Of a stretch of 64,000 bases of DNA, positions 24,239-64,000 are shown piece after piece. Every line of letters begins with the position of its first letter. Position 1 is the first letter of the stretch. The translations under genes and the position numbers were made by a program. The notes below the pieces were generated by a model that was not told the DNA's origin, made no database searches, and saw only the letters and a list, made by a program, of their open reading frames with translations. The stretch is from a virus (Duplodnaviria > Heunggongvirae > Uroviricota > Caudoviricetes), in IMG/VR virus record IMGVR_UViG_3300001199_000002, positions 48,062-112,061 of that record; one strand, written 5' to 3'.

Positions 24239-24265
24239 GCGGTCTGAGTGGAGAATGGATCTCAT

Positions 24266-24297: not shown

Positions 24298-24312
24298 GGA
24301 TAGGTGGGTAGG

Positions 24313-31582: not shown

Positions 31583-31590
31583 TGTATACT
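31578..31590 (+). promoter_or_regulatory. Candidate late promoter TTTAGTGTATACT (copy 4)
   Basis: Its TAG is the stop of 29417-31582; upstream of RBS AAGGAG and GTG 31622. Confidence 0.55.
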
Positions 31591-31621
31591 ACAACTAGAC
31601 TAGTCATCTAAGGAGCGGATT

Positions 31622-32278: not shown

Positions 32279-32289
32279 AAGGATAGGGT

Positions 32290-48371: not shown

Positions 48372-49001
48372 ATGATTGACTCTCAGGAATCGCTTGAGAA
48401 ATTGTATGCGCGTCACAAGGGCCTAATAGGGTCTTTGATCAAGTCGATCGTAATCAACAACAAGTCAGTAGTATCTACTGCTGACCTACAGCAGGTTGGT
48501 GCGATGGCCTTGATTGTGGCGTTGAAGTCGTACGATTCGTCACTCGGTTCACTGAGTGCGTATGTGAGAAAGTGCATCAGAAACGCCCTACTGGAGGAAG
48601 CTAATTCCTTCAGTGGGGTTTTTACTGTAGACGAAAAACTTAGACGACAAGCTAATAAAGCATATCAAATGCGAAGAGAAGGTAAACCTGATCAAGTGAT
48701 CATGGAAACCTTAGGCATAAAGACAGAAGCCACATATCGATCATTACTCAACCTAGTTGAAAATAAGACAGTTGATATTGAACAAATAGAACATCTGGCC
48801 TCAATCTCTCTAGATGAAGAGAACATACTCCGAGTCCTTGATGATATTGGATTGTCAAAGATAGAGAGGCGTGTCGTTAGCCTACTAATGGGTCAGGCTA
48901 CCCTCGATCAAATCGAGCAAGAGACCGGACTCACAAGAAGCGAAATTACTAACATCAAAGTCGTTGTAAGTGACAAGATCACACATTGGGGAAGTTCATG
49001 A
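48372..49001 (+). CDS. Sigma-70 family RNA polymerase sigma factor
   Basis: Region 2-like ADLQQVGAMALIVALKSYDSSLGSLSAYVRKCIRNALLE; region 4-like LSKIERRVVSLL...TLDQIEQETGLTRSEI. Confidence 0.8.
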   Translation: MIDSQESLEKLYARHKGLIGSLIKSIVINNKSVVSTADLQQVGAMALIVALKSYDSSLGSLSAYVRKCIRNALLEEANSFSGVFTVDEKLRRQANKAYQMRREGKPDQVIMETLGIKTEATYRSLLNLVENKTVDIEQIEHLASISLDEENILRVLDDIGLSKIERRVVSLLMGQATLDQIEQETGLTRSEITNIKVVVSDKITHWGSS

Positions 49002-50869
49002 CTGAGGAATACAAGAAGAGGGTTCTGTTTGTTGGAGAAGCCTCATTCCTAAACACCGGATTCTCTACCTACTATCGAGAACTCCTACCGCGCCTAGCCG
49101 AAACTGGCAAGTATGAGATTGCGGAGTTCGGTTCATACGCACATACTGCCGATCCTCGCGCTGCTGCGTTCATTAAAGGTAGATGGAAGTTCTACGGCAA
49201 TAATCCTGATAGCGAAGAGGAGCAGCAACTATTCAATCAGGGTGATGATGCACAGCCCGGTCAAAACACTAACCAATTTGGTAAGTGGCGATTTGAGAAG
49301 GTACTATCCGACTTCCGTCCTGATATCGTAATCGATATTCGTGACTGGTGGATGGTTGCATACCAAGAGCGTAGCCCATTCCGTAAGTATTTCAAGTGGG
49401 TTGTGATGCCAACAGTAGACTCGATTCCACAGAAAGAAGAGTGGATCCAAACGTATCGCAATGCGAATTACGTAATGGCATACTCTGACTTTGGTATCGA
49501 CTCGTTGCGCAAGTCTCACTCTTCTCTAGAAGTCCGAATGGATCCTCCTGGTAAGAGAGGATTTGTAGGTGTGGATAAGGTTCCAGGAAGACTACACCCA
49601 GTAGCTATGCGCCCAGGCGTAGACATGAAGACGTTCAAAGTGCCCACTCCCGAAGAGAAGGGTGCGCTACGTCAGAAGTGGGGTATTCGTGCTGATGTTC
49701 CCGTCATCTTGCTAGTCCAGCGAAATCAGTCGCGTAAGCGTATCTCTGAGGTAATTCGTTCCTTCGCGATGATGAAGGAGAAATACCCAAAGGACGAGGC
49801 TATCCAGAAGTGCATTCTATTGCTTCATACTGCTTGGCCAGACAATCAAATGTCGATTGACTTCCCAAGAGCGATTGCGCGTATCCAGGCTGGCTATCAC
49901 GGAACGCCAGTAAAGCGCAAGGGTATCATTCATGAAGTATGCTCTACATTCATGTGTCATAACCAGCAGTGCGGTGACACATTCATTGCGCCATCTATCC
50001 ACCTTCGTCAAAGTCCTGTCATTAATTGTCCTAAGTGCGGACAGCGTAGCTGTCGAACACCAACGACTGGTGCTGGACTAACCAGAGAGCAGCTTGCAGA
50101 AGTTTACGGGATGGCGGATCTAATGGTTCAAATGTCAATCGCCGAAGGCTGCGGCATGCCAGTGCAAGAAGCTAAGGCGTGTGGTGTCCCAGTCCTCGTG
50201 ACTGATTATGCAGCTATTGCTGAGAAGGGCAAACTGCCAAACTACGAACATATCGACAAGGCAAACTATACTGTTCATCTAGGTGGACAAACTATGGATG
50301 TTGCCTATCTATACGAAGAGCCAGAAACTACTTGTTGGCGAGCAATGACCTCTATGGAGGATTGCTGTGATAAGATGGCTGAGTTGATGCGCAACAAGGA
50401 ACGTCTAGCAAAGATGTCTATCGATGCACGTAAGTGCGCAGAACTGAACTACGATTGGGATAAGAACTGGAAGGAATGGGAGTGGGTTCTGGACCACGTT
50501 TCCGTCATGGATAGATCGCAGACATGGGATCGTCCAATGACTCTTATCAACATCGATCCAGTGGATCCAATCGCAGCACCCACTGACGAAGAGTTCGTGA
50601 TTAGATGCTATATTGGTCTGCTTGGATATAAGACACCAGCGGATATCGACGAAGATGGATTCAAGAACTGGATGGGTAAGCTGAAGTATGAAGCCCAACA
50701 GGGAGTTCCACCAGCAAAAACAAGACAAGAAGTCGCAAACTTCTTCCGCAATCAGGCTATGGCAATCAATACCATAGAACTTCTGCGGTGTGAGCCACAG
50801 ATGAAGAATGCGGCGCAAGAAAACAAGCCATCAGATCCTAAGGCAACATTCGAGGCAATGGTACTATGA
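48998..50869 (+). CDS. GT-B (GT4-like) glycosyltransferase with Cys-rich insertion and C-terminal DUF4214-like domain
   Basis: VLFVGEASFLNTGFSTY, VQRNQSRKR, SIAEGCGMPVQEAKACGVPV. Confidence 0.85.
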   Translation: MTEEYKKRVLFVGEASFLNTGFSTYYRELLPRLAETGKYEIAEFGSYAHTADPRAAAFIKGRWKFYGNNPDSEEEQQLFNQGDDAQPGQNTNQFGKWRFEKVLSDFRPDIVIDIRDWWMVAYQERSPFRKYFKWVVMPTVDSIPQKEEWIQTYRNANYVMAYSDFGIDSLRKSHSSLEVRMDPPGKRGFVGVDKVPGRLHPVAMRPGVDMKTFKVPTPEEKGALRQKWGIRADVPVILLVQRNQSRKRISEVIRSFAMMKEKYPKDEAIQKCILLLHTAWPDNQMSIDFPRAIARIQAGYHGTPVKRKGIIHEVCSTFMCHNQQCGDTFIAPSIHLRQSPVINCPKCGQRSCRTPTTGAGLTREQLAEVYGMADLMVQMSIAEGCGMPVQEAKACGVPVLVTDYAAIAEKGKLPNYEHIDKANYTVHLGGQTMDVAYLYEEPETTCWRAMTSMEDCCDKMAELMRNKERLAKMSIDARKCAELNYDWDKNWKEWEWVLDHVSVMDRSQTWDRPMTLINIDPVDPIAAPTDEEFVIRCYIGLLGYKTPADIDEDGFKNWMGKLKYEAQQGVPPAKTRQEVANFFRNQAMAINTIELLRCEPQMKNAAQENKPSDPKATFEAMVL

Positions 50870-52029
50870 CGCGGATTCTTTACATCGCTCCTGTCAGAGA
50901 CTTTTCTGGCTATGCGGCAGCAGCCCGTGGCTACATCAACGCTCTACATCGGGCGGGCGCTGATGTTGTTGTGCGCGCTATCAGATACGATCGCGCGGAC
51001 GCTGGATCTGAATACAAGGTAACGGATCTTGAAAAGCAACTCTTATCGAAACCACTAGAGAATATCGATGTGGTAATTCAACACACAACACCAAACGAAT
51101 TGCGACCAGTCCCCGGAAAGGTGAATATCGCTATTGTTGCGTGGGAGACAGATCGAATCCCTGAATACTGGGCAAAGAAGTTGAACCAGTTTGATTCGGT
51201 TATCACTTTCTGTGAGACTAGCGTGCAGGCGTTCAAAAACTCGGGCGTAACTGTTCCTGTAGTAAAGATTCCTCATACGTTCAACATTCCATCTTATACT
51301 CTAGATGGTGTCGATAAGATTGACTCACCAAGCGTACCAGACTTCTTCAAAGACAAGTTCGTCTTCTATAACATCAGTCAACTCTCAACAAAGAAAGGTA
51401 TTGATCTTTTGTTGCGCGCATACCTAACCGAGTTCCATGGTAAGGACAAGGATAAGGTAATGCTAGTATTGAAGACATACATTGATATGTCGAATCGTGG
51501 CTCTGAACGTGAGCGTATTAAGGCTTTCGTTGCGAGCGTGAAGAATGGTCTACGTCTTCCTGCTGATGGATATCCACCAATTATGGTAATCTCCAACACG
51601 CTCTCAGATGAGCAGATCAAGAAGATTCACTGCACTGGTGACGCTTATGTTTGCTCAAGTCGCGCCGAGGGATGGTGTATTCCAGCATTTGAAGCACTGG
51701 CATATGGAAAGAAGCTAGTTACTACAACCTGGGGTGGCATGGGTGAATTTGCCCTTACTGATGGTTGTCGCAATCTATTCGAGGTAGAATACTCGCTAGA
51801 ACCACTGGTTGGTCAGCAACATGGTGATCCAGAGCTATACACCGCTCGTGATAAGATTGCAGAGCCATCTGTTCGCTCTATGATGCTTGAAATGAGACGA
51901 GCAATGGATACAAAGCCAGAGCCAAAGCCTGACTTGATGGAATTTGACTACTCTAGCGTAGGACCAACAATGCTAACCGCGATTGAGATGGTTGTTGCAG
52001 CTAACAAGAAGGAGACAGCGAATGTCTAA
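50866..52029 (+). CDS. GT-B (GT4-like) glycosyltransferase
   Basis: FSGYAAAARGY, AWETDRIP, KKGIDLLLRAY, SRAEGWCIPAFEALAYG. Confidence 0.9.
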   Translation: MTRILYIAPVRDFSGYAAAARGYINALHRAGADVVVRAIRYDRADAGSEYKVTDLEKQLLSKPLENIDVVIQHTTPNELRPVPGKVNIAIVAWETDRIPEYWAKKLNQFDSVITFCETSVQAFKNSGVTVPVVKIPHTFNIPSYTLDGVDKIDSPSVPDFFKDKFVFYNISQLSTKKGIDLLLRAYLTEFHGKDKDKVMLVLKTYIDMSNRGSERERIKAFVASVKNGLRLPADGYPPIMVISNTLSDEQIKKIHCTGDAYVCSSRAEGWCIPAFEALAYGKKLVTTTWGGMGEFALTDGCRNLFEVEYSLEPLVGQQHGDPELYTARDKIAEPSVRSMMLEMRRAMDTKPEPKPDLMEFDYSSVGPTMLTAIEMVVAANKKETANV

Positions 52030-53062
52030 TCCGTTTGATCACAACCTGCCAAATCAGGTTTCAGCTATTTGTGACGCGATTGGGAAAAAGCCACGTATCA
52101 TTCAATGCATTCAGGCTTGTAATGAAGAAGCCTTGATTGAAGCATGCATCCTACAAGTCTACAACAAGGTAGATAAGATCATCGTGATCGAAGGTGCTGT
52201 TCAAAACAAGGTTGACGCTAAACAAGCTACACCAGACGGACATTCACTTGATCGCACTGTTGAGATCATCAAGGACGTAAAGAAGAACAAGGATCCAGAT
52301 CGTAAGATCATCTTCGTTCAAATTGATCGCCCATGGAGGGATCTAGAAGAACTAAAGAGCACCTTCTTCCAATACATGCAGGAAGGAGACTGGATGCTTA
52401 TCACAGATGCTGATGAGTTCGTATTTCCTGAGGTAGTTGACAATCTACGTGCGGCAGTCTCGGCAGAGCCATGGGCAACCGAGTTTGTGCCATCTAGATT
52501 CTATCACTTCTGGCGTGATGCTTGGCATATGCGTAAACCAAGCGGTGATTGGGGTCAGCAGCATCAAAGATTCATCAAGTTCCAGAATGGACTTCACTAT
52601 GTGAATCATCCAGTAGCACGAGATGCATCTAACCAATGCACATACTTTAGTCCGCAATATCTAATGCGCCGCTTCGTGCTACCATCATTTGTTATTTACC
52701 ACTACTCCTATTGTCGTCTAGGTGCTAATGACGTAGCCCAGAAAAAGGAATTCTACGACAAGGAACTTGGGCAAGCTAAACACGCAGACGTTGGTGCATA
52801 CGCCCGTGGTGGTCAGACTGAAGAATTCACGAACAAGACAGAAGACCTGTCAACTGTTTTACGATTTGACGGACTGCATCCGCCAGCGATGGCCACACAT
52901 CCAATCGTTCAGCGCAAGGATGAGTTCCTAACGTCTAAGGAACCGCTAGTGAGTCATATGGAAGTCGAACCATACAACCTAGAAAGAACTCCACTTATTT
53001 GGGTATGGGCGAAAGAAGGTAAGGAACCATATACACGCCTCTACAACACAGTAGAGGTATGA
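52022..53062 (+). CDS. GT-A (GT2-like) glycosyltransferase
   Basis: ACNEEALI, SLDRTVEII, WMLITDADEF (DxD), HQRF, YHYSY. Confidence 0.8.
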   Translation: MSNPFDHNLPNQVSAICDAIGKKPRIIQCIQACNEEALIEACILQVYNKVDKIIVIEGAVQNKVDAKQATPDGHSLDRTVEIIKDVKKNKDPDRKIIFVQIDRPWRDLEELKSTFFQYMQEGDWMLITDADEFVFPEVVDNLRAAVSAEPWATEFVPSRFYHFWRDAWHMRKPSGDWGQQHQRFIKFQNGLHYVNHPVARDASNQCTYFSPQYLMRRFVLPSFVIYHYSYCRLGANDVAQKKEFYDKELGQAKHADVGAYARGGQTEEFTNKTEDLSTVLRFDGLHPPAMATHPIVQRKDEFLTSKEPLVSHMEVEPYNLERTPLIWVWAKEGKEPYTRLYNTVEV

Positions 53063-53298
53063 TGATTAAGCCAAGCAAACATAAGTGGATTACAGAGGCA
53101 ATCAAAGCGAAAGAAGACACTCTGTCGGTTTGGCCTTCAAAAGAAGAACTTGAATCGAAGGTTAAGATGACAAAGTTCTTTGACGCTATTGAAAAAATTG
53201 GTAGCGACCCAAGGGTAATTGACGTTAATAGAACTGAACACAGAGAACATAAAGTGGTGTTCGTATTCACAATCGATGTAAACGCAGATGAGACCTAA
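53059..53298 (+). CDS. Hypothetical protein
   Basis: ATGA overlap; 79 aa. Confidence 0.6.
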   Translation: MMIKPSKHKWITEAIKAKEDTLSVWPSKEELESKVKMTKFFDAIEKIGSDPRVIDVNRTEHREHKVVFVFTIDVNADET

Positions 53299-54094
53299 GC
53301 TATCTTACGTTAATAGCTGTTACAACGCCGAACCATTCCTCGATGGACTAATTGAGAATCTGCTTTCTCAAGACCTGGAAGAGTTTGAACTTATCATCGT
53401 AGATAGCAAGTCAACTGATGGTAGTTTGGCCATTGCCAAAATGTGGGCAGAGCGCGACCAGCGTATCAAAATCATCGAGCAGAGCAAGCGTACTCCATAT
53501 GGAGTATCGTGGCTAGATGGATGGAAAGAGGCTATTGGATTTGTGGTAGGTAATAGCAATAGCGACGATAGATCGTATCAATGGCGTGGACGTAAAGTTT
53601 TAGACGCCAAACAAGTAAGAGGCATTACTAGAGATGTAAAGCCACCTGCATTTTACTATGGTGGATACGAAACAAGAGTTAATGGTGTGACACGCGCCAA
53701 AGGTGTGCCACCACCGTTCTCTATAGATGATATGTCACAGTTCTTTCGTTGTGGCGTGCATGTCCATTGGGATAACAATATACGCACAATCGTTGACTGG
53801 CATAGAATGTATGGGGCTGCACACGAATACAAGTCGGCTTTCGACTATTGGCTTGTTCTCTACTTTATGTCGTTAGGTGCGGAGGGTGTTCCAATCAATA
53901 GTTGTTTCTCGATCTACAATCAGAGAAGTGACTCGCTAGAACAGTCAGATAAAGAGCGAAATACTTTTGAATCGCTTCGTGCGATCGAAGAGTTCTATCC
54001 AGACGGTCCCTCAATCACCGCACTAGAGGTTGAAACGAAGATTAAGTCGCCAGAATTCTACGAACGCTATCGTGCTTTTTGCAATCAGTTTTGA
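53288..54094 (+). CDS. GT2 glycosyltransferase
   Basis: LSYVNSCYNAEPFL, IIVDSKSTDGS, NSNSDDR. Confidence 0.85.
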   Translation: MRPKLSYVNSCYNAEPFLDGLIENLLSQDLEEFELIIVDSKSTDGSLAIAKMWAERDQRIKIIEQSKRTPYGVSWLDGWKEAIGFVVGNSNSDDRSYQWRGRKVLDAKQVRGITRDVKPPAFYYGGYETRVNGVTRAKGVPPPFSIDDMSQFFRCGVHVHWDNNIRTIVDWHRMYGAAHEYKSAFDYWLVLYFMSLGAEGVPINSCFSIYNQRSDSLEQSDKERNTFESLRAIEEFYPDGPSITALEVETKIKSPEFYERYRAFCNQF

Positions 54095-54107
54095 AATAGG
54101 AACACAA

Positions 54108-54332
54108 ATGGAATTACATGTATCAGTTGCGCTTGCTAACTCAACTGTTCTCAATCTAAGAAAACTTCTAGTCGGACTGCGCTCTGGTAGCACTGTTCAG
54201 GCACAGGAAGTAGAGCTTATGATTTCTCGTGCGATCACGGACCTTGCTGGTCTTGTCGATTATGCAATGATGCTTGAGACCCAGCTTAGAGGTTTGGATG
54301 AAAAAGATCGTGGCGTTCAGTCTTTGGGGTGA
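54108..54332 (+). CDS. Hypothetical protein
   Basis: RBS AGGA, 74 aa, fills the gap. Confidence 0.55.
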   Translation: MELHVSVALANSTVLNLRKLLVGLRSGSTVQAQEVELMISRAITDLAGLVDYAMMLETQLRGLDEKDRGVQSLG

Positions 54333-55014
54333 GAACCCTAAGTATCTAGATGGCGCAATAGAGAATATGTTGCTAATGCCATCCATCTATCCTGGGTGGA
54401 CTGCTAGATTCTACATTCCACAAGAACAGTTAAGAACTTCATCAGGTCATACGATTCTGAGAACCTTCACAATGATTAATTATGAAGAAGAGTTTCTTAA
54501 GACCGGAACGAAAGTAGAGGTTATTGGTGTGGACGAGCCAGGAACTTGGCACGGTATGTTCTGGCGCTTTCTTCCAGCCAGCGAAGACGATGTAGATGTA
54601 TTCATCTCTCGTGACTGTGACTCACGCATTAGTCTTAGAGAAGCAGCGGCAGTAGATCAATGGATTAAGAGTCCATATCTAGTCCATTCGATGGCGGATC
54701 ATCCCTATCACTTTCACCCTAGGGCTGGACTGATGGGCGGCATGTTCGGTATGAAAAAGCACGCATGTCCGCAGATGCAAGACTTGATTGAAAAGTTCAA
54801 AGCCAAGTATCCTAACGCTTGGCAGTGCGATCAGGATTTTCTACGTGACTACGTGTTTCCACTAGTTGCACATAAGACATTTCCAACAAGTGACATCCAT
54901 CATGGGTGTAACAAGTTTCCACTTCCAAGAAAGGATGGAGCTTTTGTCGGAGAGATCATTGGCCCGAACAATGAAATCCTACACCCAGAACATAGGACAA
55001 TGAGAGATGCCTAA
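54298..55014 (+). CDS. Putative GT-A-like glycosyltransferase
   Basis: KKIVAFSLWGENPKY...YPGWTARFY, GMFWRF, FISRDCDSR (DxD), LMGGMFG, DQDFL. Confidence 0.6.
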   Translation: MKKIVAFSLWGENPKYLDGAIENMLLMPSIYPGWTARFYIPQEQLRTSSGHTILRTFTMINYEEEFLKTGTKVEVIGVDEPGTWHGMFWRFLPASEDDVDVFISRDCDSRISLREAAAVDQWIKSPYLVHSMADHPYHFHPRAGLMGGMFGMKKHACPQMQDLIEKFKAKYPNAWQCDQDFLRDYVFPLVAHKTFPTSDIHHGCNKFPLPRKDGAFVGEIIGPNNEILHPEHRTMRDA

Positions 55015-55435
55015 AAACGTCAAAGAAGAAACTCAGAAGAAGGTGGATATCGAATACAAGTTCATCCACAACAACACCTTCCACGCGCTACAGAAGCTAT
55101 ATCCACTATTGCCAAAGCATGGCACTATCGTAGTGTATGGTATTCCACGAGGCGGATTAATCCCAGCTACTATTCTTTCGCATGCCCTTGAGCGCGAGCG
55201 TCCTACACGCCTAGTAACATCGCTAAGTCAGCTAGATCCTAGCGACTGGCATCGTCTAGTGATCGTTGATGAGCTAGTTGACTCTGGTGACACGATCAGG
55301 TCGCTAAAGACTAGATTTCCAGAGGCGATTACAGTAGCTCTCTATCAGAGATACTCGGCAAGATATAGTGCAGACGTAGTTGGCCATACTGTTGATAATG
55401 ATGACTGGTTGGTATTTCCATGGGAGAGACTATGA
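55007..55435 (+). CDS. Type I purine phosphoribosyltransferase (Gpt-like)
   Basis: YGIPRGGLIPA, PRPP-binding VIVDELVDSGDT, WLVFPWE. Confidence 0.9.
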   Translation: MPKNVKEETQKKVDIEYKFIHNNTFHALQKLYPLLPKHGTIVVYGIPRGGLIPATILSHALERERPTRLVTSLSQLDPSDWHRLVIVDELVDSGDTIRSLKTRFPEAITVALYQRYSARYSADVVGHTVDNDDWLVFPWERL

Positions 55436-56484
55436 AGATTAGACAACAGCCAGCATATACATTTGATGACGTGCTTCTGGTTCCTCGTCATTCAAACATT
55501 GCATCTAGAGCAGATATTGATCTAACGACCCATTTGGGTAAGATGCTACTTAGACTACCTATCCTATCAGCTAATATGGATACGGTTACGGAAGCCAAAA
55601 TGGCAATTGCTATGGGGCGACGCGGCGGGGCTGGTGTATTACATCGCTTTGCTGATTCTATTACACAAATGGCATGGCTGAATGAAATGCTCAATGAGGA
55701 TGTAAATCCCAAGATTGTTTCGGTTGGTCTAGATGTTTCGGTAGAATGTCTAGCAAGTATGTGCGAAGAATGGAGCGTTAACGCAGTATGCATCGACGTT
55801 GCGCATGGAGACCACGATCGCGTGCTAGAGCTTCTCAAGAATATCAGAAACGAGATGCGTGCCATCGACATTATCGCTGGTAATGTGGCTACTGGCGAGG
55901 CGGCGATACGTCTCGTACGCGCTGGCGCAAATATCATCAAAGTTGGTGTCGGTCCTGGATCTGTATGCTCTACACGCATTATGACCGGACATGGCGTTCC
56001 ACAACTCTCTGCTATTCTAGATGTTGCGATGTCACTATCGCTTCAGAGTATTACTCCACACTATAGCATCATTGCCGATGGTGGAATCCGCAACTCTGGA
56101 GATATTGTTAAAGCGCTTGCGGCTGGTGCTGATGCTGTGATGCTCGGTTCGCTTCTTGCTGGAACTGAGGAATCGCCCGGTGATGTTGTTATGCAAGATG
56201 GACAAGCTTTTAAGTCCTATAGGGGCATGGCATCATATGATGTTCAGAAAGAAAAAAGGGCGGGTAAAATGCCACGAGTGGAAGGAGTCGCAGCAAAGGT
56301 TCCATTCAGGGGTGGGGTTGATCATACTCTCAATGTTCTTGAGAATGGTATTCGCAGTGGTCTTAGCTATAGTGGTGCTCGTAATCTTAGTGAATTACGT
56401 GATTCTGCCGAATTTGTGGTAGTTACTCAGAACGGAGTTAAGGAGAGTGGCACACACCATCCTTCGAGGCTATCATCAACATGA
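55432..56484 (+). CDS. IMP dehydrogenase/GMP reductase family protein (no CBS domains)
   Basis: [35 protein letters not shown] (catalytic Cys), IADGGIR, YRGMAS, EGV. Confidence 0.92.
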
Positions 56485-57059
56485 TCATTGCAGGAATTGG
56501 ATCGCGCAAAACACCACAAGAAGTTCTCGACATCTTTGAGAGCTTCGCCAGGAAAGTATCGGCTGGCAAGAATGGTTATGGCGCGTGGATTCGTTCGGGC
56601 CATGCTGATGGTGCTGATTATGCCTTTGAAAAGGGTGCGCGAGAGAAGTGTATTGTATATCTTCCGTGGGATAGTTTCAATCACGACAAGCCAATTCTTG
56701 GAAAAGCAAGCGCGCTCAACTTCATCGATGAAGACGCTTTCAATATCGTGCTAGAGCACGAGCCACATGCAGTTAGTTGCAGTAATGGCGTTAAGCTACT
56801 CAAGTGTCGTAATGTCTATCAAGTCCTTGGTAGAGATATGTGTAGTCACTCTGATCTAGTTGTTTGTTGGACGCCGGGTGGAACGAACTCAGGTGGAACT
56901 GGCCTCGCGGTTAAGATCGCCAGAGACTACAATATTCCAGTGATTGATATGGGACAATACCCGACTCCAGTCATCACTGAGAAGTTACTTTGGGACATCA
57001 TTGAAAAGAACTATCCTCATATTTGGAGTTCAATACCACATGAGACTATTCAAGAGTAG
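56481..57059 (+). CDS. SLOG/DprA-like Rossmann-fold protein
   Basis: IAGIGSRKTP, RSGHADGAD, VCWTPGG..SGGTGLAVKIA. Confidence 0.7.
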   Translation: MIIAGIGSRKTPQEVLDIFESFARKVSAGKNGYGAWIRSGHADGADYAFEKGAREKCIVYLPWDSFNHDKPILGKASALNFIDEDAFNIVLEHEPHAVSCSNGVKLLKCRNVYQVLGRDMCSHSDLVVCWTPGGTNSGGTGLAVKIARDYNIPVIDMGQYPTPVITEKLLWDIIEKNYPHIWSSIPHETIQE

Positions 57060-57561
57060 AATTGAGAAGGGCCTTGATAAGGGCAATTGGAGTTTATGGC
57101 GTTGGTATGATATCGTCATCAATGGCGAGTCGTATCTTACACGTTTGACGCTATTCAAGTGCCCATGGTTCAGCGTCAAGTTGCACTGGATTCACAAGCC
57201 AGATCCTGATCGTGATTTACACGATCATCCATGGCCATTCGCCTCATTCATTCTACGTGGATGGTACAAGGAATTAGAATGTAAGAAGCCAGGACATCGT
57301 GGGGCATGGATCGAACGATGTGTTGATGTCGAGCAACGAATGGAAGCCGATAATCGATTTCCAGTTAAGGAACGATTAGTGCGATGGTTCAATACTAAGG
57401 ACACTCGCGCCGCACACCGCATTACGGAAGCATCTCCAAAGTTGCTTACCTTGGTATTCACAGGAATCAAAAGCAAGGAATGGGGCTTCTATGATGAAGA
57501 CACATTCAAATACACAGACTGGGAAACATACATTGCTACACAGCAAAAGGCGAAGATGTAA
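57040..57561 (+). CDS. Cupin-like metal-binding protein
   Basis: KLHWIHKPDPDRDLHDHPWPFASFILRGWYKE...AHRI...TLVFTG. Confidence 0.7.
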   Translation: MRLFKSRIEKGLDKGNWSLWRWYDIVINGESYLTRLTLFKCPWFSVKLHWIHKPDPDRDLHDHPWPFASFILRGWYKELECKKPGHRGAWIERCVDVEQRMEADNRFPVKERLVRWFNTKDTRAAHRITEASPKLLTLVFTGIKSKEWGFYDEDTFKYTDWETYIATQQKAKM

Positions 57562-57902
57562 TGGAACATGATCTATCTTTTGGAGAACTGAGTGCTGCAA
57601 ATGCTGCACGTCACGCACAAGGTGGCGGCGGTGGAACAGAGGCTAGTTGGAATATCACCGACTGGACGAATGCCCTATGTGGTGAGGCTGGCGAGCTAGC
57701 TAACTTCGCAAAGAAGGTTCGACGAGCACGTCCAACAGATCCCACTCTAGATGAAGCAAAGGAAGACCTAGCTCACGAGTTGGCTGACATCGTTACATAC
57801 GCAGACTTGATCGCGACCAAGTTGGGTATCAATCTTGCCGAGGCTGTTAGAGCCAAGTTCAACATTGTATCTGATCGAGTAGGAAGTAATATCAAGCTAT
57901 GA
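57561..57902 (+). CDS. MazG-like nucleotide pyrophosphohydrolase
   Basis: ALCGEAGELANFAKK...LAHELADIVTY...AVRAKFN. Confidence 0.85.
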   Translation: MEHDLSFGELSAANAARHAQGGGGGTEASWNITDWTNALCGEAGELANFAKKVRRARPTDPTLDEAKEDLAHELADIVTYADLIATKLGINLAEAVRAKFNIVSDRVGSNIKL

Positions 57903-58858
57903 ATGACATGCTCGCCGACATGCGCGCTAAGATGGAAGCGCTAAAGAACAAGAAGCGCATCCTGGTGACTGGGCGCGCTATTCCACAACAACCAGATCGT
58001 TGCACTGGTCAACAACTTACTCATGGCTTCAAAGAAGCTGGTCATGATGCGTTGTTCTTCGGCTGCTTCTATGGACAGCCCATGAATTTCCTTGGATCTA
58101 AGGAATGTCAGTCGATGGATAAGTGGGATCTAGTTGTCGTTACGGAAATGAACGACGGCATGGCTGGATATGAGCCACTCTTTCAGTATCACAAATTGAA
58201 GGACGTGCCTAAAGTCTATTGGGACTTTGATGTTTCCTATAACGAAGCATATGGCTATCAACGCGCGGGATCTCATCCATACGATGGTTATCTAGTTGGT
58301 AACAAGAACTACGTTCAGGCATTTGCCGATAAGTTCAAGAAGCCAGCACTACATCTACCATACGCATGTTCGCCGATTATCCATCGCAGGATTGAAGGAA
58401 CCCTAAGAAATCACGTAGTTGGATTCGTTGGTAGTATGACGCCAGAACGCGAGGCTCTGCTACAGAACGTTCATTGCGTGCATGGTGTATTCGGTGATGC
58501 CCTCATTAGAGCCACAAACGAGCTATACACAATGATCCACATAAATCAAAATGCCTGTAAGGGATTAGTTCCTGGTCGTCCATGGGAGACGGCTGGATGT
58601 GGCGTTAATCTCTTGATGGATCGTGCAAGCTACGAAGACTTTAAGGAATTCCTGACTCCAGAACTTGACGGCATTGCTGTAGTTCCATTCGATAAGCCAG
58701 AAGAAATCCAAAAATACATCAAAGACAATCACGACAACCTATCTACTCTAGATGCCTCTGGTAAAAAGCTAATGGAGCATGTTCATACCAACCATAGTTA
58801 CAAGCACCGCGCAGAAACTATCTTGAAGTGGGCCAGGGAACAAGGGATTTTGAAGTGA
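57899..58858 (+). CDS. CgeB-like GT-B glycosyltransferase
   Basis: HLPYACSP, VGFVGSMTPER, GRPWETAGCG, HSYKHRAETI. Confidence 0.75.
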   Translation: MNDMLADMRAKMEALKNKKRILVTGRAIPQQPDRCTGQQLTHGFKEAGHDALFFGCFYGQPMNFLGSKECQSMDKWDLVVVTEMNDGMAGYEPLFQYHKLKDVPKVYWDFDVSYNEAYGYQRAGSHPYDGYLVGNKNYVQAFADKFKKPALHLPYACSPIIHRRIEGTLRNHVVGFVGSMTPEREALLQNVHCVHGVFGDALIRATNELYTMIHINQNACKGLVPGRPWETAGCGVNLLMDRASYEDFKEFLTPELDGIAVVPFDKPEEIQKYIKDNHDNLSTLDASGKKLMEHVHTNHSYKHRAETILKWAREQGILK

Positions 58859-59571
58859 ATAGACCACTGGTTAGTATTTGCGTTCCTACGTATCACGCTA
58901 ATGGTCAGCAGGAACGAATCCTCAAGCGACTTGTAAAATCAGTTAGAGAACAGGTCTATCCCAATATCGAGTTGGTGATTAGCGATCAGGACGCCGCGCC
59001 CGAAAAAGGCCAGTCTCTTCATGAGTTTATGGACGGCAAGGTTCGCGTCAAGTATCTAGCTTTTGAGGACGAAAGCGGCATCTCGGCACATAATACCAAC
59101 AACGCTATCCTAAATGCCTCTGGTGAGCTAATCCACATCTTAAACCACGACGACTTTTATTATCACGAGAACGCCTTGCGCGATATGGTTGCCCAGTTAG
59201 AGGCGCAGAAGCGTAGTTGGCTCGCAGCAGCCTGCCTGCATACAGACGCTAACGAGACCAAGCTGGAGCGCGTCCATAGCCCTTCCTGGCCTGGGGAGCA
59301 TGCTTTGGTGGAGGGTGTCAATCGGATTGGGTGTCCTTCAGTTGTGCTGTACCGCCGGGAGTTGAACTTGCGATGCAGCGAACAGATCACTTACGCGATG
59401 GATTGCGATCTTTGGATCCAAGCGTTTAGAGCCGGTGGCGAACCGGCAATTCTTCCCAGTGTGGCGGTAGTTATCCGCATGTGGGACCAGCAGTTCACTG
59501 CTCAGATGAACTCTGCAAGACAGTTAGAATTAGACAAGATTGCCCTAAGAGCCAAATATGGATACAAGTAA
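58855..59571 (+). CDS. GT2 glycosyltransferase
   Basis: GTGA overlap; PLVSICVPTY, LVISDQ, NTNNAILNASGELIHILNHDD, MDCDLW. Confidence 0.88.
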   Translation: MNRPLVSICVPTYHANGQQERILKRLVKSVREQVYPNIELVISDQDAAPEKGQSLHEFMDGKVRVKYLAFEDESGISAHNTNNAILNASGELIHILNHDDFYYHENALRDMVAQLEAQKRSWLAAACLHTDANETKLERVHSPSWPGEHALVEGVNRIGCPSVVLYRRELNLRCSEQITYAMDCDLWIQAFRAGGEPAILPSVAVVIRMWDQQFTAQMNSARQLELDKIALRAKYGYK

Positions 59572-59595
59572 CACTTTGAACAAAGGAGAAGAGTA

Positions 59596-59817
59596 ATGAA
59601 GCACCAGTATAAAAACATGAAGCTACTTCGTAGTGGAGACTTCCATATTCCAGTAGATCCTGGATATGGAGTGTTAATTGAAGGCGACGATGATTTTGTT
59701 GCTCTTATTTTAACACAAGAAAATCTAAAGGCATTAAGAGCAGCGCTCGACCCTTCAACTTGTGATATCGCGATTCAAATTGAGCAAGTAGCTAATGCTT
59801 ATATGGCAGATCAATGA
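59596..59817 (+). CDS. Hypothetical protein
   Basis: RBS AAGGAG; 73 aa. Confidence 0.6.
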   Translation: MKHQYKNMKLLRSGDFHIPVDPGYGVLIEGDDDFVALILTQENLKALRAALDPSTCDIAIQIEQVANAYMADQ

Positions 59818-59929
59818 GATTAGGTCAAAACTTAGGGATGGTATTCCTGGTACTGTAATTGCAAACCAACTTGGTATCGCAAAACAGACTGTTAACGCAA
59901 TCAAACTAGGACATATATGGAGCGAATAA
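59795..59929 (+). pseudogene. 44-codon HTH fragment resembling the C-terminus of the GIY-YIG endonuclease (not in the ORF track)
   Basis: MLIWQINEIRSKLRDGIPGTVIANQLGIAKQTVNAIKLGHIWSE; its TAA overlaps the ATG of the next gene (TAATG). Confidence 0.6.
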
Positions 59930-61062
59930 TGAATAACATACAAGTACTTAAACCTAAGTATAGAGTAGAGGAATGTCTAAAAGAGATTGAAATCTGTTTG
60001 CGCCAAGGATGGACTGGCCTGGGCTTTAAGACTACAGAGTTTGAAGAAGCCTGGAAGACCTATACTGGGTTGCCAAACGCGCACTTCGTATGCTCGGCGA
60101 CTGCCGGATTGCACTTAGCCACAAACATCTTGAAGTCCTTCTATGGCTGGAAGGACGACGACGAGGTTATCTCAACATCTCTAACCTTCATTTCGACTAA
60201 TCACGCTATCCTCTATGAGGGTCTAAAGCCGGTGTTCGCCGATGTAGATTCAGATACCCTATGTCTGGATCCTGTAGATGTCGAAAAGAAAATCACATCA
60301 AAGACAAGAGCAGTGATGTATGTAGGGCTCGGTGGTCGTTGTGGACATCTTAAGGAGATTTCAGAACTGTGCAAGAAGCACGGACTCAAGTTAATTCTTG
60401 ATGCTGCGCATATGGCTGGAACTCGCTCCTTATGGGGTCAGCATGTTGGACACGAGGCGGATGTGACCGTATTTAGTTTTCAGACTGTCAAGAACCTACC
60501 TACAGCAGATGGCGGCATGATATGCTTCAGAGACCAAGAGCTTGATGCTCGCGCACGAAAGATGAGTTGGCTTGGAATCGACAAAGATACATACGCTAGG
60601 AGTCAACAGGATGGGACGTATAAGTGGAAGTATGACGTTCCCTATCTAGGATTCAAGTATCACGGCAACTCAATTATGGCGGCACTTGGTTTGGTTGGCC
60701 TTCGCTATCTGGATGGAGACAATCATAGGCGTCGAGCGATTGCTAGCATCTATGATGAAGAGCTTTCGAGAAAGAAGCTTTGGACGCCAACAGACCTACA
60801 TTGTTCACAGCAGTCTCAGCACATCTATCAGATCGTAGTTGAAGATAGGGATAATGTTTTGAACAAGTTGAATGAGAGAGGTATCTATCCAGGCGTCCAC
60901 TACATCGACAATACCAACTACTCGATGTATAGATATGGTTACGATGATTCTCGTTTTGCACACATTGTATCGCAAAAGCTATTGTCGCTTCCAATTCATC
61001 TAGAGATGACAGATGACGATGTGAAGAGAGTGGCGCAAGCCGTAAATGAGATTACACTATGA
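59929..61062 (+). CDS. DegT/DnrJ/EryC1/StrS family NDP-sugar aminotransferase
   Basis: SATAGLHLA, PVFADVD, ILDAAHMAG, PLP-Lys motif FSFQTVKNLPTADGGM, GVHY, LSLPIH. Confidence 0.95.
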   Translation: MNNIQVLKPKYRVEECLKEIEICLRQGWTGLGFKTTEFEEAWKTYTGLPNAHFVCSATAGLHLATNILKSFYGWKDDDEVISTSLTFISTNHAILYEGLKPVFADVDSDTLCLDPVDVEKKITSKTRAVMYVGLGGRCGHLKEISELCKKHGLKLILDAAHMAGTRSLWGQHVGHEADVTVFSFQTVKNLPTADGGMICFRDQELDARARKMSWLGIDKDTYARSQQDGTYKWKYDVPYLGFKYHGNSIMAALGLVGLRYLDGDNHRRRAIASIYDEELSRKKLWTPTDLHCSQQSQHIYQIVVEDRDNVLNKLNERGIYPGVHYIDNTNYSMYRYGYDDSRFAHIVSQKLLSLPIHLEMTDDDVKRVAQAVNEITL

Positions 61063-61727
61063 AAGACAGACTTGTAGAACTTGCAGTCCAGTATGGATCA
61101 GATAAGGCACAACTTGGATACATGCCCTTGTATGAGGAACACTTCCAACGCTTTGGACTAAGTGCCGACAACGTAAGAAACATTCTAGAGATTGGCACCA
61201 ACAAGGGCTCATCTCTTCGAATCTGGGCTGAGTTCTTTCCAAATGCACAAGTTCATGGAATCGATATTACTCGTCAGTATGAGATCGCTTCTAACCTAGA
61301 TCATCCACGAATTAATACGCATCTACTGAACCAGGGATCTAAGTCTGAGCTAGAAGCATTCGTAGATCATGTTGTCAAAGACACAAAGTTCGATATCATC
61401 ATTGATGACGGATCGCATGATCAGTATGATCAGCAGCTATCACTTAGTATGCTATTTGGGAGCCTAAGAAATGGTGGTCTCTATGTTGTTGAAGACATTA
61501 TTACTGGTGAAAACTGGTGGGACTCAAATCTCTACAACAAACGCAGAATTCGACCAACTAGAACGATCATGCAAGAATTCGAGCAGACTGGTAGATTGCC
61601 AGAAGGTTTCTTGAACGGAAAAGAAATTGAGGCACAAACAGCATACTGCGAATATCGCGAATCTTCAGTTGTGATTTACGAACGACATCATCCGCAGATT
61701 GCATTCATAGGAAAGACATGTCGATAG
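61059..61727 (+). CDS. Class I SAM-dependent (O-)methyltransferase
   Basis: YGSDK, ILEIGTNKGSSLRIWAEFFPNAQVHGIDI, FDIIIDDGSH, GGLYVVEDI. Confidence 0.88.
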   Translation: MKDRLVELAVQYGSDKAQLGYMPLYEEHFQRFGLSADNVRNILEIGTNKGSSLRIWAEFFPNAQVHGIDITRQYEIASNLDHPRINTHLLNQGSKSELEAFVDHVVKDTKFDIIIDDGSHDQYDQQLSLSMLFGSLRNGGLYVVEDIITGENWWDSNLYNKRRIRPTRTIMQEFEQTGRLPEGFLNGKEIEAQTAYCEYRESSVVIYERHHPQIAFIGKTCR

Positions 61728-62449
61728 CAATACTATGTGGGAGACATAATGTGTCGTGGACTTTTACGCGGCACATGATGGAGAATTTTGCTTTCAACAC
61801 TGCATTTGTTGAAGTAGAAACTTCAAACGATATTCTCTCACGAGTATCCATGAATCAACAAGTTCATCTAAGTGAATATCAATCAGAGGATGAGACTGTT
61901 AGAAAGATCAAAGAATTTGGCGTTACAACGGTTGTGTTGGCTTGGTGGCCAAAGATCGTTCACAAGCTTAACAAGCTAGGCATTAACGTCATTAATACCC
62001 ATCCGAGCTACTTGCCATACAATCGTGGTAAGTATCCTTACTATTGGGCTCTAGTAGATGGTACGCCATTCGGCGCGACTATCCATAGAGTAGACGATGG
62101 TATCGATACAGGAGAAATCCTATGGCAGAAGAGAGTGCAGCTAGATCCAACAGATACTGGACAGACCGCCTACCACAAGGCTGCTGAAGCCATGGTGGAA
62201 CTTTTGCGCGAACATGCAGAGGACATAGCGCTGGGTCGTTTCCCAGTAAGCATCAAGCAAGATGGTGACAAAGCAAATCACCACTTTGCCAAAGAACTAG
62301 AAGCGCCACCGATTCAGAATAAGACAGAGATCGCATTCATCAATGATCTAAGAGCCAGAACGTTTGACAATAGCAACTCTGGTCGAAAGGTGGTAATTGA
62401 TGGAGTCACATATCGTGTTCATCTCAAACTCGTAGAGGATGGTTCATGA
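61718..62449 (+). CDS. Sugar N-formyltransferase (formyl-THF dependent)
   Basis: LAWWPKIV, INTHPSYLPYNRG, GATIHRVDDGIDTG, FINDLRARTF. Confidence 0.85.
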   Translation: MSIAILCGRHNVSWTFTRHMMENFAFNTAFVEVETSNDILSRVSMNQQVHLSEYQSEDETVRKIKEFGVTTVVLAWWPKIVHKLNKLGINVINTHPSYLPYNRGKYPYYWALVDGTPFGATIHRVDDGIDTGEILWQKRVQLDPTDTGQTAYHKAAEAMVELLREHAEDIALGRFPVSIKQDGDKANHHFAKELEAPPIQNKTEIAFINDLRARTFDNSNSGRKVVIDGVTYRVHLKLVEDGS

Positions 62450-62799
62450 AAAAGGAATGGCAACAATCAGCACACGATTGCTTTGGAGCATGTATTGCCT
62501 CTATAGTTGGAATCTCTACTAAAGACGTTCCACTCTTTGTCACCATGCCAATGACATACATCCAGCGCGCACGTCGATGGCTTCGTAGACGCGGTTTTGT
62601 TCTTTCGCAAATGAAGGATATCGATCAGCTAGATCGTAGACGTAACGCGATTGTTGCTGTAGATCCTTTCATGTATGAAGGCTTCCAACTTGCACATGCC
62701 ACCGTAGTTAGAAATAAGCGCGTAGTTCATGATCCAGCACGAAAAAATCCCAAGAAGCATTACAAGCTAATCTGTGGTTGGGAAATCAGAAAAGTATGA
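62446..62799 (+). CDS. Papain-fold (C39-like) peptidase-like protein
   Basis: QQSAHDCFGACIASIVG (Q..C), AHATVV (H), VVHDP (D). Confidence 0.5.
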   Translation: MKKEWQQSAHDCFGACIASIVGISTKDVPLFVTMPMTYIQRARRWLRRRGFVLSQMKDIDQLDRRRNAIVAVDPFMYEGFQLAHATVVRNKRVVHDPARKNPKKHYKLICGWEIRKV

Positions 62800-63182
62800 T
62801 GGATACAACTAAGTTTATCTCAGAAGAAGACCTAGATAAACACTCAGATTGGATATTCGTCTTTGGTGACAATCTAATTCGTAGGGGTTATGGTGGCGCT
62901 GCAAGATTGCGCGATCATGCTCAGTCATATGGTTTCATTACCAAGAAGTATCCAGACTGGAGAGAATCAAGCTTTTATACTCCAGAAGAATACAAGCCAG
63001 TATTTGAAGTTGAGTATGCAAAGCTGATAGCACTGATTGAAGCAAATCCAACCAAGATGTTCATCGTATCAAAGCTTGGATCCAATCTAGCAAACAAGTT
63101 TGGAATCTACGAAGCCATCATTCGCGATCGACTTCTTGAACTAAAAGAAGCATACGGTAACGTAGTGCTAATGGAAGTATGA
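62796..63182 (+). CDS. Hypothetical phage protein of the IFVFGxN..G.GGAA type
   Basis: WIFVFGDNLIRRGYGGAA...GFITKK. Confidence 0.6.
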   Translation: MMDTTKFISEEDLDKHSDWIFVFGDNLIRRGYGGAARLRDHAQSYGFITKKYPDWRESSFYTPEEYKPVFEVEYAKLIALIEANPTKMFIVSKLGSNLANKFGIYEAIIRDRLLELKEAYGNVVLMEV

Positions 63183-63481
63183 AAAAACCACTCAATCTCA
63201 CGGTAATAGACGGTGTGCTAAGAATAGAGATAGGTCTAGATGTTCTTGCGTTTGCTGCACAGTCAAAGTTAGATGATGAACATTTCTTTGCCACAAGCGG
63301 CGAAGAGGTAAAATCACCGGATCGTATTGTAGACAATGCTGGCTTTGCTAAAGCTCTCATTAGACAACTAAGCAAAGAAGGAGATATGGACGGATCGACC
63401 CCATTAACGCGACTGATTGACGATATGACCATGGAAGTTTTTGAAAGTGGCGACGAATCAATTAGCTGTTCAGATGACTAA
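63179..63481 (+). CDS. Hypothetical protein
   Basis: ATGA overlap; acidic, 100 aa. Confidence 0.65.
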   Translation: MKKPLNLTVIDGVLRIEIGLDVLAFAAQSKLDDEHFFATSGEEVKSPDRIVDNAGFAKALIRQLSKEGDMDGSTPLTRLIDDMTMEVFESGDESISCSDD

Positions 63482-63482
63482 G

Positions 63483-63536
63483 ATGAAACCAGACGAAGCA
63501 TATTGGATTGGATTTATGTTAAAGGAAGTTCGCTAA
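63483..63536 (+). pseudogene. Possible LAGLIDADG endonuclease stub (MKPDEAYWIGFMLKEVR)
   Basis: EAYWIGFM matches the lead-in of a phage LAGLIDADG first helix; the ADG is missing. Confidence 0.35.
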
Positions 63537-63538
63537 CA

Positions 63539-64000
63539 ATGTCATCTAAAAAACCAAAAGTATTACTTGCTTGCTTATTTGCCGATTTTGGACAAAATGG
63601 AAATATGCTTCCAGATTTCTCAAATGCAAGCTGGGAGTATCACAACATCTACAAGCCATGGAAGCAACTGGCGGATGAGGGTGTAGTTGATCTAGAGACC
63701 CACTGGTTCGATACGCAAAATAACAAGGATGGATTTGACAGACTCCTAGCGATTGCCAAAGATTGCGACTTCATCTTTCAGGTGGCAGTCAATCATGGAT
63801 TGTCGATCTGTAAGCCATATTGCGATACAATCCGTGCGGCAAACATTCCGATCGTAGACTACCCACCTGATGTGTGGGCGCGCTTCGATCATCACTCACC
63901 AGAGAATTGGATTGTGGGACGCTTTAAGGAAGGATATGTTTCGCACTTCCTAAGTCCTGCAAAGCACTGCATTCCTCTAATGGAACAACATGGACTACCA
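63539..64000 (+). CDS. N-terminus of a probable CgeB-like glycosyltransferase (runs off the window; not in the ORF track)
   Basis: Open 154-codon frame MSSKKPKVLLACLFADFG...EYHNIYKPWKQL...DYPPDVWARF, located in the glycosyltransferase cluster. Confidence 0.55.
   Translation, partial: MSSKKPKVLLACLFADFGQNGNMLPDFSNASWEYHNIYKPWKQLADEGVVDLETHWFDTQNNKDGFDRLLAIAKDCDFIFQVAVNHGLSICKPYCDTIRAANIPIVDYPPDVWARFDHHSPENWIVGRFKEGYVSHFLSPAKHCIPLMEQHGLP

Follow-up and report, generated by a model that had tools for sequence, protein, structure and literature searches.

A family-conserved, phage-encoded module with a predicted role in cytoplasmic glycan assembly in a large uncultured aquatic phage

To our knowledge, virion glycans have been proven only for some mycobacteriophages and giant viruses, and clusters of glycosyltransferase and rare-sugar genes recur in large aquatic phages with a target that has never been shown. 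Here we analyze such a cluster, of approximately 24 kb, in a 64,000-nucleotide stretch of DNA (hereafter the window) that covers positions 48,062–112,061 of the IMG/VR record IMGVR_UViG_3300001199_000002, a complete Caudoviricetes phage genome of 176,061 bp with direct terminal repeats; coordinates are those of the window unless marked genome, and all window features described below lie on the plus strand. The cluster takes up 14% of the genome and encodes nine glycosyltransferases (GTs) and one further lead (two GT4, four GT2, one GT-A and two CgeB-like enzymes, plus a GT9-like candidate). We interpret this block as a family-conserved, phage-autonomous, cytoplasmic glycan-assembly module. As its acceptor we tentatively propose virion proteins, a leading hypothesis rather than a finding and one we regard as possible more than probable.

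The nearest documented parallels are the functionally unstudied GT and guanosine diphosphate (GDP)-sugar clusters of large cyanophages. In Synechococcus phage S-SRM01 (MW015081, ~193–206 kb) and in the GT regions of pelagimyophages and cyanomyophages (PMC7029224), many soluble GTs likewise lie by Gmd and a GDP-fucose-synthase-type reductase in lytic aquatic phages. The S-SRM01 cluster holds Gmd, GDP-fucose synthase, several fucosyltransferases, GT2, GT25 and a methyltransferase, and one of its genes is a direct homologue of the GT-A protein encoded here at 54298 (31.5% identity, 96% coverage). Unlike clusters of the S-SRM01 type, the one described here belongs to a different, siphovirus-like lineage with no detectable capsid relative among cultured phages, lies behind polymerase and sigma genes rather than in a tail-fibre island, and is predicted to make not fucose but a ColD-type 3,6-dideoxy sugar together with an N-formyl amino sugar.

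Mechanistically, the best analogues would be the autonomous glycosylation of chloroviruses and Mimivirus, together with the much smaller cassettes of mycobacteriophages. The former (PBCV-1 A64R, NY-2A B736L, viral Gmd, the Mimivirus viosamine cluster) likewise combine virus-encoded soluble GTs with nucleoside diphosphate (NDP)-sugar enzymes in the cytoplasm; sequence identity is only 12–15%, and whereas capsid attachment has been demonstrated there, the present system is that of a bacteriophage and is known from its genes. Mycobacteriophages, too, encode soluble GTs, sometimes with methyltransferases, in cassettes that hold between two and four GTs and are not known to include an NDP-sugar pathway. 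O-glycosylation of the phage’s own particle by such cassettes was reportedly described by Freeman et al. in 2023 (Cell Host Microbe 31:1216, cited in PMC12619734). PMC12619734 names the C-terminal regions of capsid and tail-tube subunits as their acceptors, whereas the capsid protein here has no such extension. Two bacterial pathways provide the remaining comparisons: GDP-L-colitose synthesis (Gmd, ColD/WbdK, ColC), matched here by Gmd and a ColD-like enzyme with His in place of Lys, and sugar N-formylation (VioF, WbkC, Rv3404c), matched in part by a formyltransferase and a Lys-bearing DegT protein. In contrast to the bacterial colitose and formyl loci, there is no Wzx, Wzy or ligase context here, and the formyl branch may differ in its amino-sugar carrier, in that ArnB/PseC-like scores exceed the perosamine-synthase score.

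The initial annotation of the window, made from sequence alone, had placed the cluster directly behind a sigma gene and had it continue past the window, and both statements hold. The stop codon TGA (48999–49001) of a phage sigma-70-family factor (extracytoplasmic function (ECF)/FliA-like; 48372..49001; PF04542 E = 3.7e-7; TIGR02937 48 bits, above cut-off) shares bases with the ATG of the first GT at 48998 in an ATGA overlap, and the cluster extends 8.2 kb beyond the window end, as far as genome 120,255. In the stretch that starts with the polymerase gene and ends with Gmd, most genes overlap or abut, save for a few gaps of 100–320 bp. A scan of 44–64 kb gave fewer consensus promoter- and terminator-like sites than shuffled sequences did, marking the region as depleted in them, and no internal transcription units could be defined from it. 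The first genes past the window are the remainder of the second CgeB-like GT, DUF1643, an N6/N4 DNA methylase and a small RfaE-domain-II-like nucleotidyltransferase, the last three found in this genome only and absent from relatives; a GT2, a GIY-YIG homing endonuclease and a conserved 299-aa protein (the GT9 lead, from a protein atlas) come next, followed by a second DegT-family protein, an Fcl-like reductase and Gmd. As for the gene list of the initial annotation, every item was found within a few bases of its assigned position, and the nucleotide-metabolism genes at 55007–57902 had been overlooked. For comparison we used three close relatives (G005, G001 and G002) and three distant ones (L025–L027), whose first GT is 47–54% identical to the one here.

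The array opens with a GT-B/GT4-type enzyme of 623 amino acids (aa; 48998..50869; PF00534 E = 4.9e-14), the first and best-conserved gene of the module, with more than 1000 homologues, many on contigs of 165–183 kb. Its AlphaFold2 (AF2) model (predicted local distance difference test, pLDDT, 88) has a complete GT-B fold, and the top PDB match is the chlorovirus NY-2A GT B736L (3oy2; E = 7e-18; template-modeling (TM) score 0.81 on target). A Cys4 zinc ribbon (C320, C325, C344 and C347, invariant in 34 homologues) is inserted in its C-terminal Rossmann domain (window 49955–50038), and the protein carries a C-terminal helical domain that is scored as DUF4214 in many homologues; the ribbon or the helical domain may be an acceptor-recognition element. 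A PC4-like (single-stranded DNA-binding) match at residues 93–135 (E = 0.007) was rejected, as the confident model puts these residues within the N-terminal Rossmann domain. The second GT-B/GT4-type enzyme (387 aa; 50866..52029; PF00534 E = 4.2e-10) has orthologues of 62–80% identity in the three close relatives. Two GT2-family enzymes follow, one of 346 aa (52022..53062), with GGAG upstream of its ATG at 52022 and a marginal Pfam score (PF00535, 23.8 bits against a cut-off of 23.3) whose L025 and L026 orthologues also bear PF00535, and one of 268 aa (53288..54094; PF00535 E = 1.9e-16). Further downstream lie a CgeB-like GT-B enzyme of 319 aa (57899..58858; PF13524 E = 7.8e-12), another GT2 (58855..59571; PF00535 E = 5.4e-15 over the full profile) and the 5′ part of a second CgeB-like GT-B enzyme (63539..64000; PF13524 E = 5.7e-17 for the full-length product), whose gene ends at genome 112,619, approximately 560 bases past the window.

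The protein at 54298..55014 (238 aa) has neither a Pfam nor a PHROG match and belongs to an unnamed, mostly viral family with 4195 homologues. We assign it to the GT-A fold (GT8/GT24/GT78-like) from an AF2 model built with 28 homologues (pLDDT 90.6; Foldseek GT-A matches at E ~2e-6) and from a DxD motif (D106, D108) that is invariant across them; the nearest structures are mannosylglycerate synthase (best), the UGGT catalytic domain, GT8, Skp1 galactosyltransferase and PBCV-1 A64R. All eight GT calls made initially in the window therefore stand, six by Pfam, 52022 by a marginal Pfam score plus orthologues, and 54298 by its GT-A model with the invariant DxD, so that CAZy-type assignment draws on Pfam scores above cut-off for seven of the eight genes and on fold and motif for the eighth. 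The “O-GlcNAc transferase / SPINDLY family” labels (JGI/record) carried by homologues of this protein were dropped, the fold being GT-A and not GT41, and were not used as evidence for a protein target. One of the labelled homologues sits in the record ‘Acinetobacter phage MD-2021a’ (CAKLQH020000005.1, L023), where recN, yqgF, coaE and type II secretion genes flank the match and which resembles a bacterial chromosome, not a phage.

The structural neighbors of these enzymes bear on an acceptor of another kind, that is, a non-virion phage or host protein, a small molecule, a lipid or a free oligo- or polysaccharide (e.g., a storage or protective glycan). After B736L, the closest solved relatives of the first GT are GlgM, MshA, BshA and PimB, which act on small molecules or lipids; the GT-A model best matches mannosylglycerate synthase, conserved small proteins lie between the GT genes, and sequence features do not fix the acceptor. 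Such a target is nonetheless unlikely, as 9–10 GTs and two rare-sugar branches exceed the needs of known small-molecule glycosylations, and the cassette-like diversification between relatives suggests an exposed, recognised structure.

The aminotransferase, methyltransferase and formyltransferase of the initial annotation were all recovered by profile matches. The first, a DegT-family NDP-ketosugar aminotransferase (59917..61062; PF01041 E = 1.9e-83), keeps the Schiff-base Lys, aligned with the His of a ColD-like paralogue downstream; its best PDB matches are ArnB/TlmJ (5e-49, against 1e-33 for perosamine synthase), and ArnB, TlmJ and PseC are all closer to it than perosamine synthase. The S-adenosylmethionine (SAM)-dependent methyltransferase (61059..61727; PF13847/PF13578) resembles the catalytic domains of the deoxysugar O-methyltransferases MycE/TylE (PDB 3ssm, E = 2e-16; 8ia9, E = 1e-14), and the sugar N-formyltransferase (61718..62449; PF00551 E = 1.2e-20) matches dTDP-Qui4N formyltransferase, PseJ, Rv3404c, VioF and WbkC, with N-x-H and Asp motifs in its translation. 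Judged from these matches, the product of the trio is probably an O-methylated, N-formylated amino-deoxyhexose, and the combination of aminotransferase, methyltransferase and N-acyltransferase presumably parallels the synthesis of methylated viosamine in Mimivirus. The sole dehydratase of the phage is Gmd, whereas the aminotransferase scores higher with uridine or deoxythymidine diphosphate (UDP/dTDP)-sugar enzymes.

Inspection of the flanking genome for NDP-sugar genes, which the initial annotation had proposed, uncovered a second branch 5–8 kb past the window end, made up of Gmd (TIGR01472 E = 4e-107; PF16363 368 bits), a DegT protein whose best matches are ColD/WbdK structures and in which His replaces the Schiff-base Lys, and an Fcl-like reductase (NF047922 281 bits, below cut-off); all scores of the colitose and formyl pathways fall below the NCBIfam equivalog cut-offs. 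The gene set for GDP-L-colitose (Gmd, a pyridoxamine phosphate (PMP)-dependent 3-dehydratase with His, and an epimerase/reductase) is thus complete, which points to a GDP-colitose-type branch. No sugar-1-phosphate nucleotidyltransferase of the NTP_transferase family is encoded in the phage genome, and the phage therefore appears to start from host NDP-sugars.

We next consider where the sugars could be assembled. A hydropathy scan of all 270 open reading frames (ORFs) found no transmembrane or hydrophobic segment in any cluster GT or sugar-pathway enzyme, with marginal internal values only in the inosine monophosphate dehydrogenase (IMPDH)-like enzyme, the GT9-like candidate and one discarded ORF call. 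Across the whole genome there is no polytopic protein of flippase or polymerase size (none of the flagged ORFs has more than three hydrophobic segments or exceeds 341 aa), no Bac_transf priming transferase match and no integrase match (PF00589; the control search was positive in 14/14 genomes, and serine recombinases were not searched). The initial statement that flippase, Wzy, priming transferase and membrane GT are missing can thus be extended from the window to all 176 kb, and classical serotype conversion, already doubted there, is unlikely in a complete genome without integrase, Gtr/Wzx/Wzy/priming transferase or membrane GT. Together with the enzyme families assigned by Pfam and modeling, the scan bears out a soluble, multi-enzyme glycan-assembly system, and one that makes its own rare sugars.

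Solubility does less to separate a virion target from the host surface. O-antigen units, too, are assembled by soluble GTs on lipid carriers of the host, and the lack of a flippase therefore says little against a target on the host surface. The cluster GTs could use undecaprenyl-linked or lipid A-core intermediates of the host as acceptors on the cytoplasmic side, and the host’s own flippase and ligase would export the altered glycan. Several observations fit such remodeling of the host envelope: Gmd, ColD, Fcl-like reductase, DegT, N-formyltransferase, GT2, GT4, GT9-like and RfaE-domain-II-like genes form the set of an O-antigen or lipopolysaccharide (LPS)-core locus; the O-unit GTs of Wzx/Wzy pathways are normally soluble or peripheral; a homologue of the GT-A protein lies within the similar cluster of S-SRM01; an early change of the surface would agree with the placement of the cluster among middle-type genes; and the authors who described the pelagimyophage and cyanomyophage clusters propose host O-chain modification (PMC7029224). 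Against it, the absence of an integrase means that this is not classical lysogenic conversion, a membrane component is lacking altogether in the whole-genome scan, and a glycan of approximately ten sugars built and exported via unrelated host Wzx/Wzy enzymes would be demanding. A core of five to six GTs kept in order across deep divergence is likewise hard to square with acceptors that vary by host, and inteins in cluster genes suggest essentiality. On balance we consider envelope remodeling rather doubtful; it would alter the surface of the infected cell and could, e.g., block superinfection or prevent re-adsorption of progeny.

Conservation across relatives also bears on the acceptor. Behind the polymerase gene, the core order GT4, GT4, GT2, GT2, GT-A, IMPDH-like is kept in six relatives, over a range from 85% to ~47% identity of the first GT, and where the retrieved flank extends far enough, a CgeB-like GT, a GT2 and a DegT gene come after the core. 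In degree of conservation, the core GT array equals the replication genes. Around it the content varies: G002 is without the methyl- and formyltransferase and has a different aminotransferase and additional GT2 genes, L025 and L027 have additional GT4 genes and a cupin, and the distant relative L026 has no sigma gene next to the cluster, which shows that coupling to sigma is not universal. A core order that persists over such divergence, where a host-specific acceptor would be expected to change, favors an acceptor made by the phage; if the acceptor travels with the phage, we would expect just such a combination of a stable core and variable cassettes that is inherited along with it, and the variable tailoring cassettes suggest a product exposed to diversifying selection.

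Two further lines suggest that the module is old and important to the phage. GC content in the glycan block equals that of the rest of the genome, and Gmd is 71–74% identical to phage relatives and at most 51% identical to any bacterium, with bacterial matches spread over many phyla; even GC and a Gmd nearer to phages than to bacteria argue for a module that is old in the lineage. Homologues of the first GT (P0042, P0048, P0053) carry intein and LAGLIDADG Pfam domains, the G002 orthologue (L021:751-3774) measuring 1007 aa against 623 aa here, and the G002 Fcl-like reductase (L022:9005-11131), with 708 aa against 308 aa here, possibly contains an intein as well, judged by its length. Inteins are typical of indispensable genes and unusual in glycosyltransferase and sugar-reductase genes, and their presence in the first GT, and possibly in the Fcl-like gene, suggests that these genes are indispensable to the phage. 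As separate observations, the ribonucleotide reductase (RNR) orthologue of G001 (L020:8830-11943) has 1037 aa against 684 aa here, and homing-endonuclease genes (GIY-YIG and others) are dispersed in the cluster (L001:4949-5503, L001:10946-11704, several in L021/L022) at positions that vary between relatives.

In the mechanism we propose, the phage enzymes would draw on GDP-mannose from the host and probably also on a UDP- or dTDP-ketosugar that the host supplies. Gmd, the ColD-type 3-dehydratase and the Fcl/ColC-like reductase would lead to GDP-L-colitose in one branch, the other would supply a 4-amino-deoxyhexose that is N-formylated and, probably after transfer, O-methylated, and a hetero-oligosaccharide would then grow through successive additions by the nine or ten soluble GTs. 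The analysis establishes the enzyme families, their solubility, the logic of the pathways and the way the module is conserved; we infer which sugars are made, in what order they are transferred and, most of all, which acceptor they reach. This acceptor would be phage-made and most likely consist of one or more exposed virion proteins. Besides the conservation pattern, the structural neighbors of the cluster GTs include chlorovirus B736L (the best match of the first GT) and A64R (GT-A), and the tube and distal tail proteins are rich in Ser, Thr and Gly. The Ser/Thr-rich distal tail proteins (21372–36110) contain 113 SG dipeptides against 44.5 expected from composition (2.5-fold over expectation; 56 GS), whereas the rest of the proteome, with 244 SG, 236 GS and 213 expected, has no SG bias; the bias of the tail proteins is real but does not amount to a defined glycosylation sequon.

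The virion reading must be set against the position of the cluster in the genome. A single plus-strand block spans genome 41–130 kb and holds, in order, terminase, portal, capsid, a 2216-aa tape measure and tail genes, which are followed by a UvsX-like recombinase, DnaB-like helicase, primase, exonuclease, DnaE-type DNA polymerase III (PolIII)-alpha and single-stranded DNA-binding protein (SSB); after the sigma factor and the glycan cluster come a Whirly-like protein, dUTPase, flavin adenine dinucleotide (FAD) oxidoreductase, class II RNR, dCMP deaminase and ThyX. The cluster is thus placed between replication genes and nucleotide-metabolism genes. A late-type TTTAGTGTATA motif (0–1 mismatch) precedes the structural operons on the plus strand at genome 40904–79639 and also lies upstream of several minus-strand genes in both arms (genome 7831–8877 and 134755–175346).

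Several results weigh against virion proteins as the acceptor. The TTTAGTGTATA motif is absent from the 50-kb stretch of replication, glycan and nucleotide genes (genome 79.7–130.5 kb), and the cluster lies outside the structural module, in the replication/nucleotide region. SG-rich tail fibres are common without glycosylation, and the major capsid protein (4399–5430) ends without a Ser/Thr-rich extension at its C-terminus (that of the tail tube, 10823–12205, was not assessed). None of the results links the glycan to a virion protein, the folds of the GTs are shared by enzymes that act on lipids and small molecules (PimB, MshA, BshA and PglA), and work on comparable aquatic phage clusters favors host O-chain modification (PMC7029224). 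Of the initial proposal of stepwise cytoplasmic synthesis of a glycan on virion proteins, the soluble multi-enzyme assembly is therefore supported by profiles and hydropathy, and its placement on virion proteins is not.

The same genomic position underlies a further reading, in which the GTs glycosylate bases of the phage genome and so evade restriction. The cluster is flanked by PolIII-alpha and SSB on one side and by dUTPase, dCMP deaminase, RNR and ThyX on the other, and it is interleaved with phosphoribosyltransferase (PRTase), IMPDH/GMP reductase (GMPR)-like, SLOG and MazG-like genes and, in this genome, also with the N6/N4 DNA methylase and DUF1643. The first GT carries a zinc-ribbon insert, and LPS-related phage GTs have been found to attach as many as three sugars, heptose among them, to 5-hydroxymethylcytosine (5hmC) (bioRxiv 10.1101/2023.12.21.572611). 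Known DNA glycosylation, however, requires either a ThyA homologue or a TET-type dioxygenase paired with a C5-methylase (PMC13326640; bioRxiv 10.1101/2023.12.21.572611), and a ThyA-family enzyme is required for the routes through 5hmC, 5-hydroxymethyluracil (5hmU) and 5-hydroxycytosine (5hoC) (PMC13326640). Genome-wide, PF00303 (ThyA family), PF00145 (C5 cytosine methylase, the TET-type partner) and TGT/DpdA are absent, and PF12851 (TET/JBP) gave no match in a search without positive control, in line with the initial observation that no hydroxymethylase or TET-type gene is visible. Nor does any base-modifying enzyme occur among 20 large genes of the minus-strand arms; the presence of ThyX, dUTPase and dCMP deaminase indicates a supply of ordinary thymidine, neither the DNA methylase nor DUF1643 occurs in relatives, the weak PC4-like match dissolved into a Rossmann domain, and known DNA glycans carry three sugars at most. 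This reading retains only its positional argument, and we consider it very improbable.

The nucleotide-type genes at 55007–57902 may belong to the adjoining nucleotide module. They comprise a small xanthine-phosphoribosyltransferase (PRT)-like protein (55007..55435; PF00156 E = 8.9e-6; NF006613 E = 3e-16, below cut-off), an enzyme of the IMPDH/GMP-reductase family without CBS domain (55420..56484; PF00478 E = 2.8e-103), a SLOG/DprA-like Rossmann protein of 192 aa (56481..57059; phrog_768 E = 1.4e-44; orthologues in G001, G002 and G005), a cupin protein labelled ‘cysteine dioxygenase-like’ as an atlas lead (57040..57561; phrog_4786 E = 8e-29) and, as a weak call, a MazG-like nucleotide pyrophosphohydrolase (57561..57902; PF12643 E = 2.8e-4, below cut-off; kept in G001/G002 and L026). 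The IMPDH-like gene has the same position in all relatives examined, and it is conserved in place with the SLOG and MazG-like genes across the closer ones; in the most distant relatives only the IMPDH-like gene occurs within the fetched flank. The cupin gene is accessory, being found only in G000 and G005. Two readings of the set are open, rebalancing of the purine pool or supply of guanine nucleotides for GDP-sugars. The best PDB matches of the IMPDH-like enzyme are CBS-deleted IMPDHs (1e-77, against 1e-57 for GMP reductases), and its alignment shows a shortened flap without the Arg-Tyr dyad, which makes a GMP reductase at least as likely; for the same reason we did not adopt the idea that this enzyme and the xanthine-PRT-like protein make xanthosine monophosphate (XMP) for the GDP-sugar branch. 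Among the smaller genes, a conserved 79-aa protein (53059..53298) has no Pfam or PHROG match and shows 24 invariant positions in four relatives, a 73-aa ORF (59596..59817) has no family match and no tblastn match in relatives, and three small accessory ORFs of 117, 134 (DUF7831) and 100 aa (62446..63481) are absent from relatives.

The phage itself represents a siphovirus-like lineage (2216-aa tape measure, DnaE-type polymerase) for which searches of 50,697 phage records, by megablast with a 15-kb region and by tblastn with the capsid protein, gave no cultured relatives; the capsid protein likewise has no relative among 185,579 prokaryote genomes. TerL reaches at best to large Bacillus siphoviruses (24% identity), and DnaE is at most ~31–33% identical to phage records. 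Metagenomes contain many relatives of 165–183 kb, and the phage family is abundant, uncultured and aquatic, with genomes of ~170 kb; substantial sequence sharing was limited to two aquatic-metagenome DNA runs of one study, with no RNA run among those listed. The 20 large genes inspected in the two minus-strand arms encode RNA repair, NAD salvage, AAA ATPases and similar functions. One minus-strand gene far from the tail module (L002:1964-4231, genome 131964–134231) encodes a 755-aa protein with an endosialidase tailspike C-terminal domain (PF12219), which by this domain may be a polysaccharide-targeting spike, and an NAD-salvage pair, also on the minus strand (L003:7821-10146, genome 157821–160146), consists of adjoining genes for a NAMPT-type nicotinamide phosphoribosyltransferase and a NUDIX protein.

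Taken furthest, our analysis would describe a family of ~170-kb aquatic phages with virion glycosylation of giant-virus complexity, in which 9–10 soluble GTs decorate tail or capsid proteins with a glycan that contains colitose and an O-methyl, N-formyl amino-deoxyhexose, and a fixed core with serotype-like cassettes diversifies the surface; we advance this picture with reserve, as conceivable but not yet probable. A core array as conserved as replication genes in an abundant uncultured family argues for a phage-made acceptor. If virion proteins prove not to be the target, the case would help to separate host-surface from DNA readings of such clusters. If they are, coats of complex and diversifying glycans would count as a trait of phages in general, with a bearing on adsorption, grazing, immune recognition and the annotation of “auxiliary LPS genes”.

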